Shown here piece after piece: positions 14,440-23,101 of a stretch of DNA of 64,000 bases. Below the pieces are notes generated by a model. It was not told where the DNA came from and did not search any database. It worked only from the letters and a program-made list of their open reading frames with translations. A program made the translations under genes and the position numbers. Position 1 is the first letter of the stretch. Each line of letters starts with the position of its first letter. The DNA comes from Candidatus Oxydemutatoraceae bacterium (GTDB taxonomy: Bacteria; Pseudomonadota; Gammaproteobacteria; Poriferisulfidales; Oxydemutatoraceae), in contig CBDCOZ010000003.1 of NCBI GenBank assembly GCA_965220085.1, positions 1,024,001-1,088,000 of the forward strand, given 5' to 3'.

Positions 14440-16873
<2,434 letters not shown>

Positions 16874-16884
16874 GGCGATAGCGG

Positions 16885-17751
16885 CTAGGATGCGCCGCCT
16901 ATCCGTCTTTGCATTTTCGCCGCCAGTATGGTGTTTCTTATCAGGCAAGCGACAGTCATCGGCCCGGTTCCGCCCGGCATCGGCGTGATCGCTCCGGCGA
17001 CTTTCGCGACCTCATCAAACAGCACATCGCCGTATATCTTGTCCCCCTTGCGCGTGATACCGACGTCAAAAACAGCGGCTCCGGGTTTGACATATTCGGC
17101 TGTCACAAGTTCGGGCATACCGCAGGCGGCGACGAGAATATCGGCGCGCCGGCAGACGTGAGGCAGTTGCTTCGTAGCCGAATGGCAGATCGTGACAGTG
17201 CAATCCGTTCCCTTGCGCCCCAGCAGCAGCGCCAGCGGAAGGCCGACCAAGTGCGAGCGCCCGATGACCGTCGCATTGCGCCCCTCGGTCGGTATGTCAT
17301 AGCGCTTGATCAGCTCCATCACCCCAAGCGGCGTGCAGGGCGACAAGCCGCCGCTATTGTTCAGCAAGCGTCCGAGGTTGTCGGCGCCAAGCCCGTCGAC
17401 ATCTTTGAGCGGCGGGATCAGATCAAGTATCGGCGCGACCTCAAGGTGTTTCGGCAACGGCAGTTGCAGCAAGATACCGTGCACGGTGTCATCGCGCGCC
17501 AGTTGCCGGATGGCATTTTCAACCGCATCTTGCGGCGCATCGTCGGGCAGTTCTATCAGGCGCGGTATCAGCCCTGTCTGCGCCGCCATTTTCAGTTTCA
17601 GGCCGATATAGACCCGGCTGGGAGGATAGTCGCCGACCAGAACAGTCGCCAGCGTTATCTCGCTATTGCCGCTGCGAGCGATATCGCTTGCTAATTCCGC
17701 GATGATCTTCTCTGCCGTACGTTTGCCGTCGAGCAGAATCGCCTCTTGCAT
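16885..17751 (-). CDS. folD: Bifunctional methylene-THF dehydrogenase/methenyl-THF cyclohydrolase
   Basis: HGILLQLPLP, KDVDG, PCTP, GRSHLVG, TPMPGGTGPMTV. Confidence 0.96.
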   Translation of the reverse strand: MQEAILLDGKRTAEKIIAELASDIARSGNSEITLATVLVGDYPPSRVYIGLKLKMAAQTGLIPRLIELPDDAPQDAVENAIRQLARDDTVHGILLQLPLPKHLEVAPILDLIPPLKDVDGLGADNLGRLLNNSGGLSPCTPLGVMELIKRYDIPTEGRNATVIGRSHLVGLPLALLLGRKGTDCTVTICHSATKQLPHVCRRADILVAACGMPELVTAEYVKPGAAVFDVGITRKGDKIYGDVLFDEVAKVAGAITPMPGGTGPMTVACLIRNTILAAKMQRRIGGAS

Positions 17752-17757
17752 CGTCCG

Positions 17758-18687
17758 CTATTCGCTTGCCGGTTGCTTGTCGGGATGCAGGTAGATAAAG
17801 CTCTTGCCGAGCCGCCCGCCGTAATTGCCGGCTGATATCATCAGCAGGTCGGGCGTGTCTTTTGCCGCATGGATAGCCGCCTGCGTGGCTTCAATGATGC
17901 AATCTATGCCATGCCCGTTCATGATGATTTCCATCACCGAGCCGACCCCCTCGGGCAACCCTTTTTCAACGCTCGGATCATCCTGCAACATCGGGCAGAA
18001 CTTTTCATAGGTGCTGGCAATGGAGAATTCATATTTGCTGCCGGCCTTTGAGCCGCTGCTGGCGATTCCGCCGGGAAAGGCGCAGATGACGCCGGCGACC
18101 GGCGCGATCGCGTCGACGCCTTTTTCCGCGGCGGCCAACGCGGATGTGGCATCCTTGCCAAAGAACCACAGGTTGCCCCCCATCAGCCCTTCGCGATAAC
18201 CGAGGCGCCGCTCCATCACGAACTCGCCGCCCAAAGTCGGTATCTGCCACATTTTGCGCCCATACCGCTCTATGCGCTTCTGATAACCGTTGCCGAAATA
18301 GGCGACCTTGCGCCCCATCTGATAATACGTATCCGAATCTGCCGCATTGAAGCACGAGGCGGTAGGGCAGGTCAGAATGTTCTGACTGATGCGCACCAGA
18401 GCCACCCGTTCCAGTTTGGGCACACGGTCTTTCCAGAATCTCGGCACATGGAATTGAACCAGCGCGCCCGGGCGTCCGTCCGGAGTGGTCACGCTGGCAT
18501 CGCCGCCGGGGCCGACATAGCGATCCAAGCCCGCTTCGCAGTCGCACAGAATCGTGCTGGACGCATTGCCGGCGCACGCATGAATCGCATGGTCAAGCCA
18601 CTTCCTGTTGTCGGCGGTAATCAGAACCTCGGTGTAGAGGCTCTTAAAAGCTTCGGCATAAGTATCGTCTATGATCGCCGCCATCAA
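17758..18687 (-). CDS. ftr: Formylmethanofuran-tetrahydromethanopterin N-formyltransferase family protein (Ftr/FhcD-like)
   Basis: DTYAEAF, CDCEAG, TPDGRPG, QNILTCPT, FGNGYQ, GGNL, FPGG..SGSK, EIIMNG, ISAGNYGGRLG match the recalled Ftr motif order. Confidence 0.9.
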   Translation of the reverse strand: MMAAIIDDTYAEAFKSLYTEVLITADNRKWLDHAIHACAGNASSTILCDCEAGLDRYVGPGGDASVTTPDGRPGALVQFHVPRFWKDRVPKLERVALVRISQNILTCPTASCFNAADSDTYYQMGRKVAYFGNGYQKRIERYGRKMWQIPTLGGEFVMERRLGYREGLMGGNLWFFGKDATSALAAAEKGVDAIAPVAGVICAFPGGIASSGSKAGSKYEFSIASTYEKFCPMLQDDPSVEKGLPEGVGSVMEIIMNGHGIDCIIEATQAAIHAAKDTPDLLMISAGNYGGRLGKSFIYLHPDKQPASE

Positions 18688-19316
18688 TCTCTCCCTTTGC
18701 CCTGATAGATTTCCTTTTCGGTGATCACTTTGTCCATGAAGACATCGTGCGGCCCGACCAGAATTTCCTCAAACAACTGGGCTTCGTAACAAATGGCAAT
18801 CAGCGGACAGTCGGGGCGGACTTTTTCCAACAAGCGGTCATAGTAGCCCTGACCGTTGCCCATCCGCCCGCCGGCGGGGTCAAAGCCGACGCCGGGGACC
18901 ATGACGATATCCAGCGCGGCCGGCTCGGCTTCCTTCTCCGGATTGCCCCACAGTTCGCGCGGCGGCTCCAGGATGCTCCACTTGCCGACGACCAACTCGT
19001 CAAAGTCTTCAAGCCGCCACAAACCCAGTTTGTTATCGCCGTTCTCGTCTTCGGTACAGTAAGGCACGATGATGGTTTTCTCGCCTTTCTCCACTTCCTG
19101 TCGCAGGTGTTTTTTCGTGCGGGTCTCGGAACGGCAATCTATGTACCACATCGCCACCTTGGCTTTTTGGTATTCGGGCAAGGCGATAAATTTTTCGCAA
19201 ATTCCCTCGCTGATGTTGTCTTTGTCTTCTTGCGCGGCGCGCGCATCATACGCTTTTCTGCGCATCGCATTTTTCTTTTCCATCAATTTTTCAAGTTCTT
19301 CGGGTGACAATGGCAT
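18684..19316 (-). CDS. 5-formyltetrahydrofolate cyclo-ligase
   Basis: N-terminal K..MR helix, ILEP, DIVMVPGVGFD, RMGNGQGYYDRLL, HDVFMDKVITE. Confidence 0.95.
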   Translation of the reverse strand: MPLSPEELEKLMEKKNAMRRKAYDARAAQEDKDNISEGICEKFIALPEYQKAKVAMWYIDCRSETRTKKHLRQEVEKGEKTIIVPYCTEDENGDNKLGLWRLEDFDELVVGKWSILEPPRELWGNPEKEAEPAALDIVMVPGVGFDPAGGRMGNGQGYYDRLLEKVRPDCPLIAICYEAQLFEEILVGPHDVFMDKVITEKEIYQGKGRD

Positions 19317-19374
19317 GGTTGCATACTCCTTATAAAAGTTATCTAAGTAATGGGGTGAAAAGTTTGGTCTGCGG

Positions 19375-19383
19375 ATTATAGCA
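19375..19383 (-). promoter_or_regulatory. Extended -10 promoter (TGcTATAAT) for the 5-FCL-ftr-folD operon
   Basis: Perfect TGnTATAAT about 60 bp upstream of the ATG, in an AT-rich gap, with an AAGGAG ribosome-binding site at 19327-19332. Confidence 0.6.
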
Positions 19384-19489
19384 AATTTTCCGATTGCAAG
19401 TCGCGCTCATTTTTTCGCTCGCCGATGGCCGCATATCCGTTGCGCATAAGGCGAGCGACCGCCGAGCGAACAGCGGCAAAATCGCCTCG

Positions 19490-21163
19490 TCAATCGGTGA
19501 TGGCCCCCTCGGACGCCGAGCGCACCAGCCGCGCGTACTTAGCCAGCGCCCCGTTGCGATAACGCAACGGCGGCGGCTTCCACGCCTTGAGTCGGCGTTT
19601 TATCTCGGCCTGCGGCAGTTTCAAGTCTATCGTGCGCCGCAGCGCATCGATTGTAATCTGGTCGCCGTTGCGCACGATGGCAAGCGGTCCGCCGAGCGCC
19701 GCTTCGGGCGTGATATGCCCGACGACAAAGCCGTGGCTGCCGCCGGAAAAACGACCGTCTGTAATCAGCGCGACCTCGGCGCCGAGCCCAAGCCCCATGA
19801 CAGCCGACGTCGGCGCGAGCATCTCGCGCATGCCGGGCCCGCCTTTGGGGCCTTCGTAGCGAATGACGATCACATGCCCGGGTTTGATCTTGTTGCCCAA
19901 GATATCTTTGAGCGCGGCCTCCTCGGACGCAAACACGCGAGCGCTGCCCGCAAAGCGCTGGCCTTCCTTGCCGGTAATCTTGGCCACCGCGCCTTCGGGC
20001 GCCAAGTTGCCGCGCAAGATGACGAAATGCCCGTCTTTTTTAATCGGCCTGTTGAACGGGCGGATGATTTTTTGTGTGCGCGGATAGGGCCGCGCCGAGC
20101 GCAGACTGTCGGCGAGCGTCTCGCCCGTGACGGTCAGGCAATCGCCGTGCAAAAGTTTTTTGTCGAGCAACCGCTTCATCAGCGGGCGGATGCCGCCGAT
20201 GCGCACCAACTCGGACATGACATAGCGCCCGCTCGGTTTGAGGTCGGCCAACACCGGCGTGCGCCGTCCGATGCGTGAGAACGCATCCAAGCTTAGTTTG
20301 ATGCCGCAAGCGCGCGCCATCGCGATCAGATGCAAGACGGCGTTGGTAGACCCCCCCAATGCGGTGACAACGGTGATGGCATTTTCAAACGCTTTGCGCG
20401 TCATGATATCGCGCGGGCGGATATTTTTTTCTATCATTCGCGCGACGATCTTGCCTGCCGCCGCGCAGTCATTGATTTTTTGCTTTGAGACGGCGTTTTG
20501 CGCCGAACTGCCGGGCGGACTCATGCCCATCGCCTCGATGGCGGAAGCCATCGTGTTCGCGGTGTACATCCCGCCGCACGAGCCCGGCCCCGGAATCGCG
20601 CGCGACTCTATCTCGTGCAACTCGCCGGCATCAATTTCCCCGCGCGCCCGCGCCCCGACCGCTTCAAATACGCTGACGATATCCACCTTTTTCCGCCCGA
20701 TCTGTCCGGGCATGATCGTGCCGCCATAGACAAAGACCGCCGGTCGGTTGAGGCGGGCGATGGCCATCATGCACGCAGGCATGTTCTTGTCACATCCGCC
20801 GATTGTGACCAGACCGTCAAAACCTTCGCAGGCGGTGACCGCTTCGATGGAGTCGGCGATAATTTCGCGCGACACCAGCGAATATTTCATGCCTTCGGTG
20901 CCCATGGAGATGCCGTCGGATACCGTAATCGTATTGAACGTGACCGCCTTGCAGCCGTTGCGATCGACACTGCGCGCGGTTTCCTCGGCGAGCCGGTTGA
21001 TGTGCATATTGCACGGCGTCACCTCGCTCCAGGTCGAAGCGATGCCGACCTGCGGTTTGCCAAAATCCTTGTCGGCGAACCCGACCGCCCGCAACATCGC
21101 GCGGCTCGGCGCACGTTCATACCCGTCGACGACGGGTGAGGAGAATATACGTTCTTTTTTCAT
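19490..21163 (-). CDS. ilvD: Dihydroxy-acid dehydratase
   Basis: PCNMH, SDGISMG, GCDKNMP, CGGMYTANTM, EGPKGGPGMREML, TDGRFSG; start moved to MKKERIFS. Confidence 0.97.
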   Translation of the reverse strand: MKKERIFSSPVVDGYERAPSRAMLRAVGFADKDFGKPQVGIASTWSEVTPCNMHINRLAEETARSVDRNGCKAVTFNTITVSDGISMGTEGMKYSLVSREIIADSIEAVTACEGFDGLVTIGGCDKNMPACMMAIARLNRPAVFVYGGTIMPGQIGRKKVDIVSVFEAVGARARGEIDAGELHEIESRAIPGPGSCGGMYTANTMASAIEAMGMSPPGSSAQNAVSKQKINDCAAAGKIVARMIEKNIRPRDIMTRKAFENAITVVTALGGSTNAVLHLIAMARACGIKLSLDAFSRIGRRTPVLADLKPSGRYVMSELVRIGGIRPLMKRLLDKKLLHGDCLTVTGETLADSLRSARPYPRTQKIIRPFNRPIKKDGHFVILRGNLAPEGAVAKITGKEGQRFAGSARVFASEEAALKDILGNKIKPGHVIVIRYEGPKGGPGMREMLAPTSAVMGLGLGAEVALITDGRFSGGSHGFVVGHITPEAALGGPLAIVRNGDQITIDALRRTIDLKLPQAEIKRRLKAWKPPPLRYRNGALAKYARLVRSASEGAITD

Positions 21164-21179
21164 GGGGATGTATTTTACA

Positions 21180-22340
21180 TTATCGGTCAAAAGCGAGTCT
21201 GACGCCGGCGAATATATGCCGTTTTTCGCGCGTGTGAAAATTCCTAAAACTAATCCTGCGGCACTCCGCCTCGCTGAAGCGGCTGGCCCCGCGCAAAGCA
21301 TAGTGCTTGTCGTCAAAAGCGGGGATGGAATATTCGGGATAAGGGAAAGGGCGGAAGTCGGGGTAGGGGTGGAAGGTGTTGTCGCACCACTCCCAAACAC
21401 AGTGCATTTTCTCAAGTTGCCCCGTATGCGCCGCTATTTCCCACTCGTATTCGTGCGGCAGGCGCGCGTTCGCATAGGCGGCAAACGCGCGCGCCTCGTA
21501 ATGGCTTATGCCGTGCACCGGCTCATCGGGCGCCAACGGGCGGCTGCCGTCGCAATGCGTTTGATGCCAACTCCCCCGCGCATCGCAAAACCACCCGTCG
21601 GGGGCGCTCACCTTGGCGGCGGCCAGCCAGCGGCGGCCGTTGCGGTCCCAATGCTCCGTGTTCCGATAGCCGCCGGCGCGGATGAAGGCGAGGTACTGCG
21701 CGTTGGTCACCGGCGTCCGGTTGATCGCAAACGCCTTCGGCGCCACCTCCTGTTGCGGCAACTCATTGTCAAAAGACCAATTATCGTTGCCGCCGACACG
21801 GGTCTGTTGGTGGTTGCCAAAGCAAACCGGCGCGTGTGTGATCGCAGCGGCCTGTGTCAGCCCCTTGCCGGCGCGGCCGCCGCCCTTGCGCGCAAACATC
21901 TGCGTCTTGATCATGCGCATCGTTTCAATGTGTTGCGCGTGATGCTGAATCAGGAACTTGAGCAAATAGTCCTGTCGCATCAACTCGTGCCGCAACAGTT
22001 TTGACGGCGCGGCTTTGAACAAAGCGATATTGTCTTGTTGCTTTTTGCGAATCTGTCGCAGCGCGTCATTCTTCGGCGGCAACTGTCCGCCGCGCTCGGA
22101 GTGCGGGCAATTTTCCGGAATGTACAGCCCCGACAGCGCCGTATCCGCCGGTTGCGCCTCCAGCACGCGCTCGCGCAACCACAGATTCTCTACGAACAAA
22201 GTGTGTCCGACATGCCAGCCGAGCGGACTCAAATGGTCGTGATAGCGATTGCGATACTCATCGTCGCTGACCCCCCGCAGCATGCCGATGAGCGTCGCAT
22301 GGATGGCGCCCAAGCGCGCGGTCAGCCGGTCGCGGTTCAT
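21180..22340 (-). CDS. egtB: EgtB-type sulfoxide synthase (DinB-like plus formylglycine-generating-enzyme-like domains)
   Basis: SPLGWHVGH, HHAQHIE metal motif, FDNELP, PVTNAQY, RLPHEYEWE, VWEW, FRNF; coupled to egtC. Confidence 0.8.
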   Translation of the reverse strand: MNRDRLTARLGAIHATLIGMLRGVSDDEYRNRYHDHLSPLGWHVGHTLFVENLWLRERVLEAQPADTALSGLYIPENCPHSERGGQLPPKNDALRQIRKKQQDNIALFKAAPSKLLRHELMRQDYLLKFLIQHHAQHIETMRMIKTQMFARKGGGRAGKGLTQAAAITHAPVCFGNHQQTRVGGNDNWSFDNELPQQEVAPKAFAINRTPVTNAQYLAFIRAGGYRNTEHWDRNGRRWLAAAKVSAPDGWFCDARGSWHQTHCDGSRPLAPDEPVHGISHYEARAFAAYANARLPHEYEWEIAAHTGQLEKMHCVWEWCDNTFHPYPDFRPFPYPEYSIPAFDDKHYALRGASRFSEAECRRISFRNFHTREKRHIFAGVRLAFDR

Positions 22341-23101
22341 AGCTTTATGACCCGCGCGGGTCGGTTGCGCTCGGCAATGAGGATGCTGTCTTCCGGCACC
22401 GCCTCCCACGCGGCGGAATCCGTCATGCGCTCGGAGGCGACGGTATGCGCGCCGGCCTCGTAATGCGCATACATCGTCAGCGCCGGCCCGCCGACGGCGG
22501 CGCGCATCACAAACAGCCTGTCGGCCTCGCTGACAATAAAATTCAGAAACGCCTCGCGTGTGCCGCGGCTGCGCAGCCACCGCCACGCCTTTTGCAGGGC
22601 ATCGGCGACGGTGTCGCCGGGGGCCTCGCGCAGGCATTGCCGAATGAGCGCGACGAGGTATTCCGAGTCGGTCAAACCGCCGATGCCCGCCGCGATATCC
22701 GGCTCCAGTATCTTGAGTATCTCGTGGCGCAGGCTGCGGCGGAAATCCGTGACAAAGCCGTTGTGGACATAGAGCCTGCCGCGGTCGCAAAAAGGCTGGC
22801 TGTTCTGCAGGCTGTTGTCAAAGCCCTCGGTGGCGCTTCGCACCATCGCAACCCACAGGTCGCGCTCCAGAGCGCTTGCCAGCCCCGCGAGGTTGCTATC
22901 GCTCCAGATCGGCATGGGGTTGCGATATGTCGCCGGCGCGCCGTCGTCTTGGTACCAACCGAAACCGAAGCCGTCGGCATTGAGTTTGGCGTAGCGGAGC
23001 TCTTTGGGCGCCCACGACTGAAGGTAGAGGCTGTGCTCGGGGGCGATGAGAAAATCCTTGAGCGGCAAGGGGTTTCCCAGATATGCTGCGAGACGACACA
23101 T
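22337..23101 (-). CDS. egtC: Class II glutamine amidotransferase, EgtC-like
   Basis: N-terminal MCRLAAYLG nucleophile Cys, NADGFGFGWY, PIWSD, HNG, TDSE. Confidence 0.88.
   Translation of the reverse strand: MCRLAAYLGNPLPLKDFLIAPEHSLYLQSWAPKELRYAKLNADGFGFGWYQDDGAPATYRNPMPIWSDSNLAGLASALERDLWVAMVRSATEGFDNSLQNSQPFCDRGRLYVHNGFVTDFRRSLRHEILKILEPDIAAGIGGLTDSEYLVALIRQCLREAPGDTVADALQKAWRWLRSRGTREAFLNFIVSEADRLFVMRAAVGGPALTMYAHYEAGAHTVASERMTDSAAWEAVPEDSILIAERNRPARVIKL

Follow-up and report, generated by a model that had tools for sequence, protein, structure and literature searches.

To our knowledge, textbook methylotrophy leads from the tetrahydromethanopterin (H4MPT) branch, in which one-carbon (C1) units are oxidized, to the tetrahydrofolate (H4F) branch, in which they are assimilated, only via free formate and the formate-H4F ligase FtfL. 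In Methylorubrum extorquens this connection is the FtfL-Fch-MtdA route, and in known methylotrophs ftfL, fch and mtdA are found beside serine-cycle genes. The N5-formyl derivatives of both pterins can be cyclized, without ATP in the case of N5-formyl-H4MPT (by Mch) and at the expense of ATP in the case of N5-formyl-H4F. The latter reaction is that of 5-formyltetrahydrofolate cyclo-ligase (5-FCL, also MTHFS or YgfA), which is known as a repair and salvage enzyme of a side product. Here we describe a putative operon in which a 5-FCL gene is followed by a gene for a divergent protein of the formylmethanofuran:H4MPT formyltransferase (Ftr) family and by folD. It occupies positions 16885-19316 of the window, by which we mean the whole analysed stretch of 64,000 nucleotides (positions 1,024,001 to 1,088,000 of contig CBDCOZ010000003.1, here C3, in the assembly GCA_965220085.1 of Candidatus Oxydemutatoraceae bacterium, here G000). 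We coined the clade name Ftr2 for the formyltransferase-like protein and its orthologues, and we propose that the operon might connect the two pterin systems without passing through formate.

A formyl transfer of the kind we have in mind is known from an unrelated enzyme. The glutamate formyltransferase activity of formimidoyltransferase-cyclodeaminase shuttles a formyl group, with no need of ATP, between a primary amine and the N5 position of H4F. Ftr2, however, belongs to a different protein family and would act on a different amine, and the cyclodeaminase is a catabolic enzyme found in animals. Divergent second copies of Ftr have been noted in archaea, namely the uncharacterized Ftr2 paralogues of anaerobic methanotrophic archaea (ANME), Archaeoglobales and Methanopyrus and the EhaT protein of Methanothermobacter (bioRxiv 10.1101/2021.09.25.461819; PMC3087415, both as far as their text was available). 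Compared by description only, these are extra copies beside a canonical one, just like the bacterial Ftr2, but in the available parts of the same two sources no linkage to 5-FCL is reported for them.

Results

The genes for 5-FCL, Ftr2 and FolD follow each other head to tail on the minus strand (Table 1), with ilvD upstream and the convergent ligA downstream. A preliminary description of this DNA had named three tightly packed open reading frames (ORFs) here, and both the ORF search and the profile search recovered them. The 5-FCL protein matches PF01812 over positions 1-186 of 186 (129 bits) and TIGR02727 with 122.3 bits against a cut-off of 84.9; its core motif PGxxFDxxGxRxGxGxGYYDR aligns to the solved 5-FCLs 1SOU, 1YDM and 3HXT. 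By these matches it is a full-length member of the 5-formyltetrahydrofolate cyclo-ligase family, above the equivalog cut-off and with the catalytic motif. FolD contains both of its domains (PF00763, 99.9 bits; PF02882, 203.3 bits), and every NCBIfam FolD model that it matched stayed under its own strict cut-off (best 297.4 versus 396 bits). 5-FCL and FolD were each the sole tblastn match in this genome, so both are single copies and both are in the operon. The junction between 5-FCL and ftr reads ...GATTGATGGCG, where the TGA stop codon and the ATG share one base (TGATG). An alternative TTG start at 18687 would give an Ftr2 of 309 aa (17758-18687) and an overlap of four bases (TTGA), but the ATG at 18684 is favoured since the identical database protein has 308 aa. 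The overlap is therefore not the ATGA that had been assumed, while the spacing between ftr and folD is indeed 6 bp (the ftr TAG, 6 nt, the folD ATG). The identities of the three genes and their tight coupling are thus demonstrated.

Ftr2 has the same two-lobe architecture as the described enzymes (M. extorquens FhcD, 6S6Y; Methanopyrus kandleri Ftr, 1FTR/2FHJ; Archaeoglobus fulgidus Ftr, 1M5H), to which it aligns with E values of 1e-50 to 1e-65. Both lobes are matched at full length (PF01913, 138.5 bits; PF02741, 159.2 bits), yet the curated cut-offs are barely passed (TIGR03119 fhcD, 293.5 versus 292.6 bits; NF002554, 311.5 versus 297). Against solved structures the bit scores were 222 for the stand-alone archaeal Ftr 1M5H, 217 for 1FTR/2FHJ and 211 for 1M5S, and 174 for the complex-bound bacterial FhcD 6S6Y_D. 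Identity to the FhcD of the same genome is 36%, whereas Ftr2 orthologues are 72-82% identical across Gammaproteobacteria and Planctomycetota. A family search in 1.84 billion cluster representatives gave 966 members at E values up to 0.001. From the best 150 of these we kept the 44 with 280-340 aa (106 fragments or fusions were dropped) and added 10 Ftr2 orthologues, the window protein and its own genome's FhcD. In the resulting tree of 56 rows (quick IQ-TREE search, with the Shimodaira-Hasegawa-like approximate likelihood ratio test, SH-aLRT, as sole branch support), 15 Ftr2-type rows form one clade (SH-aLRT 100) on a stem of length 0.69, and the FhcD of the window genome falls among the other 41. 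The deepest full-length Ftr2 member is P0121 (62% identity, Planctomycetota labels). Judged by this tree, Ftr2 is a distinct clade and the window protein stands apart from canonical bacterial FhcD; its gene, between 5-FCL and folD, is likewise outside any fhcC/D/A/B cluster.

The catalytic core is nevertheless kept. In an alignment of 34 Ftr2 sequences (for which 32 of the 80 loci introduced below were used) with 17 canonical ones, eleven columns are invariant in all 51 sequences, namely E252 and 10 other family-invariant residues. E252 aligns with the glutamate of the ...EIVING motif in 1FTR and 6S6Y_D, and the GGIxxSGSK motif is conserved as well. Glu252 is also the catalytic glutamate of FhcD in the available text of PMC6926001. 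On the other hand, at 59 positions at least 90% of the 34 Ftr2 rows share a residue that occurs in at most 12% of the 17 canonical rows. These clade-specific changes include otherwise near-invariant sites (R19E, with R in 16/17 canonical rows; N226Y, N in 14/17; M151L, M in 14/17). F/Y40N, V237P and a three-residue insert (K85-D86-R87) are further examples.

For the gene neighbourhood we scanned one genome per species and obtained 390 stretches encoding relatives; our counts use the best 80 loci (72-80% identical). These loci come from gammaproteobacterial bins, with labels including Candidatus Porisulfidus, Candidatus Oxydemutatoraceae and Thiotrichales, and from Planctomycetota. 5-FCL adjoins Ftr2 in 77 of the 80 loci, directly upstream on the same strand in 76 and inverted in one; of the other three, one is cut inside Ftr2 and two, from Pirellulaceae, have no 5-FCL within 6 kb. 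FolD lies 3' of the pair in 59/80 loci. Sga follows 3' on the same strand in 54/80, mostly with Mcl, MtkA, MtkB and Hpr (identities by Pfam), and the same order of FCL-Ftr2 and serine-cycle genes was found in four more loci from the class-level sample described below. In the Planctomycetota loci the flanking genes are unrelated and no serine-cycle gene is nearby, so that only 5-FCL and Ftr2 travel together. Hence the neighbourhood is conserved across two phyla with respect to this pair, whereas FolD, counted initially as an equal part of a three-gene unit, turned out to be a looser partner. A formamidase-type or other donor-forming gene was not found conserved beside the pair in the related loci, those of Planctomycetota included.

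The 5-FCL member of the pair is far more conserved than is usual for the MTHFS/YgfA family: an alignment of 31 orthologues that span two phyla has 78 invariant columns out of 210 and a mean column identity of 83%. The pairwise identities of 5-FCL and Ftr2 correlate (r 0.67, a value reached by 0/2000 permutations), as the shared history of linked genes would predict. A complex prediction of two copies of Ftr2 with 5-FCL, run with our own alignments, scored 0.00 where the mark to be reached is 0.32, which says nothing either way. In the Planctomycetota bins L013, L038, L079, L080, L082, L083, L085 and L086, Ftr2 is 72-79% and FCL 62-68% identical to the window genes. These proteins are far closer than the phyla are, which makes a joint transfer of the two genes between phyla probable, although some of the short contigs might be mis-binned.

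It had been noted at the outset that fhcABC, mch, mtd and fae are missing, which is true of the window but not of the genome (2.49 Mb, 99% complete). Genome-wide searches found an fhcA-fhcD-fhcC cluster, mch, fae, two mtd-type dehydrogenases, beta-RFAP synthase and mfnB (Table 1), and all other FTR, MCH, Fae and Mpt_N matches of the genome are outside the window. By gene content, the H4MPT/methylofuran system is complete, and the premise that it is absent had to be given up. Given this full system, and given that Mch occurs beside Ftr2 in nearly all genomes compared below, the formyl donor would most likely be formyl-methylofuran or formyl-H4MPT. This makes the earlier suggestion of an unknown N-formyl compound as donor unlikely and speaks against a 5-FCL that stands in for Mch; 5-FCL would instead work beside it. 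The genome also encodes a pyrroloquinoline quinone (PQQ) methanol-dehydrogenase-type protein (734.6 bits versus a cut-off of 480). RuBisCO was not found in this genome, nor was any FtfL above cut-off despite its 99% completeness. Linkage of the operon to serine-cycle genes inside this window was considered and rejected, the cluster being about 140 kb away here.

Co-occurrence was analysed in 50 genomes taken from the 80 Ftr2 loci. Mch is present in 49/50, the exception being a 0.9 Mb bin, and the canonical FhcD type likewise stands beside Ftr2 in 49/50, whereas FtfL was found in 7/50 only. Exactly one PF01812 match, the pair member itself, occurs in all 50. We had considered that this 5-FCL might be a specialized extra copy and rejected the idea, since it is the only copy in 50/50 genomes. 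The order to which G000 belongs was represented by 53 species genomes (41 of high quality; some of about 1 Mb). Ftr2 at at least 70% identity occurs in 50/53 of them (41/41 of high quality) and malyl-CoA lyase (Mcl) in 50/53 (40/41), but FtfL in 3/53 (3/41). In a class-level sample an FTR-family match was obtained in 36 of 301 genomes. It is Ftr2, confirmed by identity, in seven of the 36 (G000, G254, G052, G150, G119, G131 and G296), of which three have FtfL (2/6 without the unpublished G296). FtfL is present in 25 of the 29 genomes that have canonical FhcD only (23/27 without the unpublished G039 and G141). The scarcity of FtfL in Ftr2 genomes is suggestive of a gap that the Ftr2 route would fill. 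As a separate observation, the FtfL matches in G118 and G295 (both in the class sample) and in G336 carry a single in-frame TGA or are broken into two parts, which may point to a selenocysteine or readthrough codon or else to a damaged gene.

In one metagenome-derived genome, G308 (locus L027), which consists of one 2.6 Mb chromosome, Ftr2 is the sole gene of the Ftr family. FhcA was not found in G308 by protein search or by TIGR03121, the one weak match being a dihydroorotase. The genome keeps mfnB, and its hpr, sga and FCL-Ftr2-FolD genes have an mptG-mtd-mch-fae island as their immediate neighbour. Provided that nothing is missing from the assembly, it must be Ftr2 that takes the formyl group from N5-formyl-H4MPT in this organism, with the furan cofactor still being made. 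As far as its genes tell, G308 fits an Ftr2 that has kept the methylofuran half-reaction and serves two pterins; being one bin, it is a lead. The same genome has an FhcC/FwdC-like gene (TIGR03122, 261 bits) directly before NuoE/F-like and FdhA-like genes of an NAD-type formate dehydrogenase (L091:6793-12996), where the FhcC scaffold may have been put to another use.

Upstream of 5-FCL we read by eye an extended -10 element and a Shine-Dalgarno-like sequence (Table 1). The -35-like TTGCAA is merely 13 nt from the -10 and thus not properly spaced, which is why a scan of 16200-19800 for consensus sigma-70-type promoters, with 0 promoter-like sites, did not call the element. The motif TGNTATAAT has 2 matches in the window versus 0.58 expected; two are reached in 14/100 shuffles, so the count alone is not significant. 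Of 71 related loci, 17 have a TATAAT at a distance of 38-82 nt ahead of the 5-FCL start, but the TG is missing from all 17. The strong promoter that had been described is plausible, though neither the scan nor the motif count bears it out. A single shared promoter for 5-FCL, Ftr2 and FolD is plausible.

Two other features of the window are worth recording. A 99-bp unit occurs in 5.0 copies that match to 96% at 16379-16873, in the region between folD and the convergent ligA; it corresponds to the 3' end of ligA with the stop codon, and four extra LigA C-terminal coding tails lie past the real gene end at 16470. Upstream of ilvD, at 21180-23101 on the minus strand, two ORFs look by eye like an EgtB-type sulfoxide synthase and a class-II amidotransferase, a pair whose sequences suggest ergothioneine-type biosynthesis.

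Table 1. Positions of the operon, its upstream signals and related genes elsewhere in the genome (window coordinates unless prefixed by C3)
Feature	Position	Strand	Basis or remark
5-FCL (5-formyltetrahydrofolate cyclo-ligase family, FCL), 210 aa	18684-19316	minus	PF01812 + TIGR02727
Ftr2 (divergent formylmethanofuran:H4MPT formyltransferase family protein), 308 aa from ATG	17758-18684	minus	PF01913 + PF02741
FolD (methylene-H4F dehydrogenase / methenyl-H4F cyclohydrolase), 288 aa	16885-17751	minus	PF00763 + PF02882
Promoter-like extended -10, TGCTATAAT	19375-19383	minus	read by eye; 59 nt upstream of 5-FCL ATG; putative function
Shine-Dalgarno-like AAGGAG	19326-19331	minus	read by eye; 9 nt ahead of 5-FCL ATG
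Canonical Ftr-family gene (fhcD) within fhcA-fhcD-fhcC cluster	about C3:978-981 kb		outside window
mch	C3:995877		outside window; genome-wide family search
fae	C3:998696		outside window; genome-wide family search
Two Mpt_N (mtd-type) dehydrogenases	C3:993878 and C3:685349		outside window
beta-RFAP synthase	C3:992841		outside window
mfnB	C3:1838492		outside window
sga-mcl-mtkA-mtkB-hpr (serine cycle)	C3:895451-900779		about 140 kb from operon

Discussion

In this study we describe a conserved pair of genes for a cyclo-ligase and a formyltransferase-like protein, and we propose that the operon containing it acts as a formate-independent bridge to folate, a reading that we consider to have about an even chance of being correct. 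Formaldehyde from the PQQ methanol dehydrogenase would be oxidized on H4MPT by Fae, Mtd and Mch to N5-formyl-H4MPT, and the canonical FhcD would hand the formyl group to methylofuran. Ftr2, as a stand-alone, archaeal-like paralogue, would then move the formyl group from methylofuran or H4MPT to N5 of H4F rather than to H4MPT, or maybe serve both pterins. The translationally coupled 5-FCL would close N5-formyl-H4F to 5,10-methenyl-H4F, spending one ATP because N5-formyl-H4F is a thermodynamic sink. FolD, finally, would either open the product to 10-formyl-H4F for biosynthesis or reduce it to methylene-H4F, which would feed serine hydroxymethyltransferase and the serine cycle. We infer all substrates, the direction of flow and the co-transcription of the operon. 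The choice of partner is what makes a folate product attractive: since H4MPT cyclization is ATP-free, an ATP-dependent cyclo-ligase would be a sensible partner only for a folate-type product. The genome itself, with methanol dehydrogenase and serine-cycle genes, without RuBisCO and without FtfL, points to a gap that such a route would fill. The core of what had been supposed from the window, an Ftr product of the N5-formyl-pterin type that passes through 5-FCL with ATP to FolD as a C1 entry, thus gains contextual support from the conserved pair, from the serine-cycle neighbourhood and from the scarcity of FtfL, while its unknown donor becomes improbable and its replacement of Mch does not stand.

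Compared with FtfL-Fch-MtdA, the proposed route would have the same output, methenyl- and then methylene-H4F, and the same cost of one ATP, and it would replace FtfL plus Fch. The place next to serine-cycle genes is likewise held by FCL-Ftr2, in the 54/80 loci and the four further ones, though not in this window. However, its enzymes are unrelated to those of the known route, formate would never be released, entry would be at N5 and not at N10 of H4F, and FtfL is absent here and from most Ftr2 genomes. With respect to FhcD and Ftr, the differences are the separate clade with its 59 fixed positions, the place beside 5-FCL (76/80 loci) instead of in an fhcCDAB cluster, the company of a canonical FhcD in 49/50 genomes and the proposed acceptor, H4F. 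With respect to MTHFS/YgfA, the window 5-FCL would be a main-line step rather than a repair enzyme.

Several points weigh against this proposal. The main obstacle is access to the donor: according to the available text of PMC6926001, the Fhc of M. extorquens binds methylofuran tightly as a prosthetic group, with 97% of it protein-bound, so that formyl-methylofuran might be out of reach for a free-standing Ftr2, except by docking on Fhc or with a free or different cofactor in this organism. Ftr2 may also have an unchanged H4MPT specificity, as its score just over the fhcD equivalog cut-off and its kept catalytic residue would allow. FtfL and Ftr2 coexist in some genomes (7/50; 3/7 in the class sample) and are not strict alternatives. 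Moreover, the co-occurrence samples overlap, their genomes are kin with few independent events, and no statistical test was applied. 5-FCL, single-copy in every genome, and FolD, single-copy here, could simply be housekeeping genes in a serine-cycle cluster, and in this genome the serine-cycle genes are some 140 kb from the operon. G308, lastly, is a metagenome bin, and its missing fhc cluster could be an assembly loss.

Some of these points are shared by an explanation that we regard as unlikely but deserving attention, in which Ftr2 is an ordinary free-standing formyl-methanofuran:H4MPT isoenzyme and 5-FCL a housekeeping enzyme that clears N5-formyl-H4F from serine hydroxymethyltransferase, the two being neighbours for co-regulation only. 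Family membership, catalytic glutamate and motifs of Ftr2 are all intact, the single-copy 5-FCL and FolD must have housekeeping duty as well, and a 5-FCL would make sense on its own in a serine-cycle cluster, where the side reaction of serine hydroxymethyltransferase meets high flux; in G308, furthermore, Ftr2 is the only Ftr and so must handle N5-formyl-H4MPT. Yet in Planctomycetota, with no serine-cycle gene close by, 5-FCL and Ftr2 are still neighbours, and a canonical FhcD is already there in all but one of the 50 genomes. An isoenzyme would also leave unexplained the long stem and the clade-specific positions, among them a near-invariant arginine whose charge is reversed, the unusual conservation of 5-FCL and the methylene-H4F supply of a serine-cycle methylotroph that lacks FtfL. 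It is rather improbable that the pair works wholly within the H4MPT system, with Ftr2 making N5-formyl-H4MPT and the cyclo-ligase converting it with ATP to methenyl-H4MPT, as a one-way Mch for reductive flow from formate. With Mch in 49/50 genomes and cyclization of N5-formyl-H4MPT ATP-free, the step would be redundant, and futile beside oxidative flow; in addition, 5-FCL passes the bacterial 5-FCL equivalog model, there is only one per genome, and the next genes, FolD and the serine cycle, use H4F. What speaks for it is that Ftr2 is closer to archaeal Ftr than to FhcD, and that folate-free methanogens encode a 5-FCL homologue for which Kaster et al. suggested a possible action on 5-formyl-H4MPT (PMC3087415, in the part of the text available).

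Just as slim, in our view, is the chance that the transfer runs the other way, in which case Ftr2 would relieve the cell of inhibitory N5-formyl-H4F by moving its formyl group onto methylofuran or H4MPT, where it would be oxidized to formate. This would amount to a salvage pathway without ATP demand next to 5-FCL. A transfer close to equilibrium is to be expected, the step from formyl-H4MPT to methylofuran being given as +4.4 kJ/mol in the available text of PMC6926001, and dependence on the H4MPT system fits either direction. But such a salvage would duplicate the job of the very 5-FCL to which Ftr2 is translationally coupled, and it would leave unexplained why FtfL is scarce and why the pair is positioned ahead of FolD and assimilatory serine-cycle genes. 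Hardly any credence can be given to an Ftr2 that moves formyl groups to H4F from another N-formyl donor, such as formamide or an N-formyl amino acid, independent of methylofuran and H4MPT. Nothing specific favours it, although some of the clade-specific changes may fall in the methylofuran cleft; Ftr2 occurs without Mch only in the 0.9 Mb bin, mfnB is kept even in G308, which has neither FhcA nor FhcD, and donor-forming genes of the formamidase or another type are not conserved beside the pair.

Returning to the bridge to folate, we suppose in a wider version, which we hold to be slightly less probable than even, that Ftr2 accepts H4F alone or in addition to H4MPT. Together with its dedicated cyclo-ligase it would build an ATP-driven bridge from the H4MPT/methylofuran system to folate that bypasses formate. 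For an entire order of methylotrophs, marine and sponge-associated, this would be the main route by which C1 units are assimilated into the serine cycle, and for some Planctomycetota a general folate C1 feed, with N5-formyl-H4F as a true intermediate instead of a side product. Topical literature searches found no description of the 5-FCL/Ftr gene pair in the parts of the literature that they covered, and all database names in the clade are the generic 'formylmethanofuran--tetrahydromethanopterin N-formyltransferase'. From what the comparison of sequences tells, we are dealing with members of known families that probably have a new specificity and would form a pathway of new topology.

In conclusion, we characterized a gene pair in a whole order of small-genome marine bacteria that have methanol dehydrogenase, an H4MPT pathway and serine-cycle genes but almost never FtfL, and that keep the pair even at genome sizes of about 1 Mb. 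If the proposed bridge holds true, it would mean a new enzyme specificity in a family that was thought to be bound to methanogen cofactors, and a main-line metabolic role for 5-FCL. It would also change how C1 assimilation is read from metagenomes, since the genes of this clade carry the plain Ftr label. Beyond that, a formate-free and strongly driven entry into folate could serve the engineering of synthetic methylotrophy.

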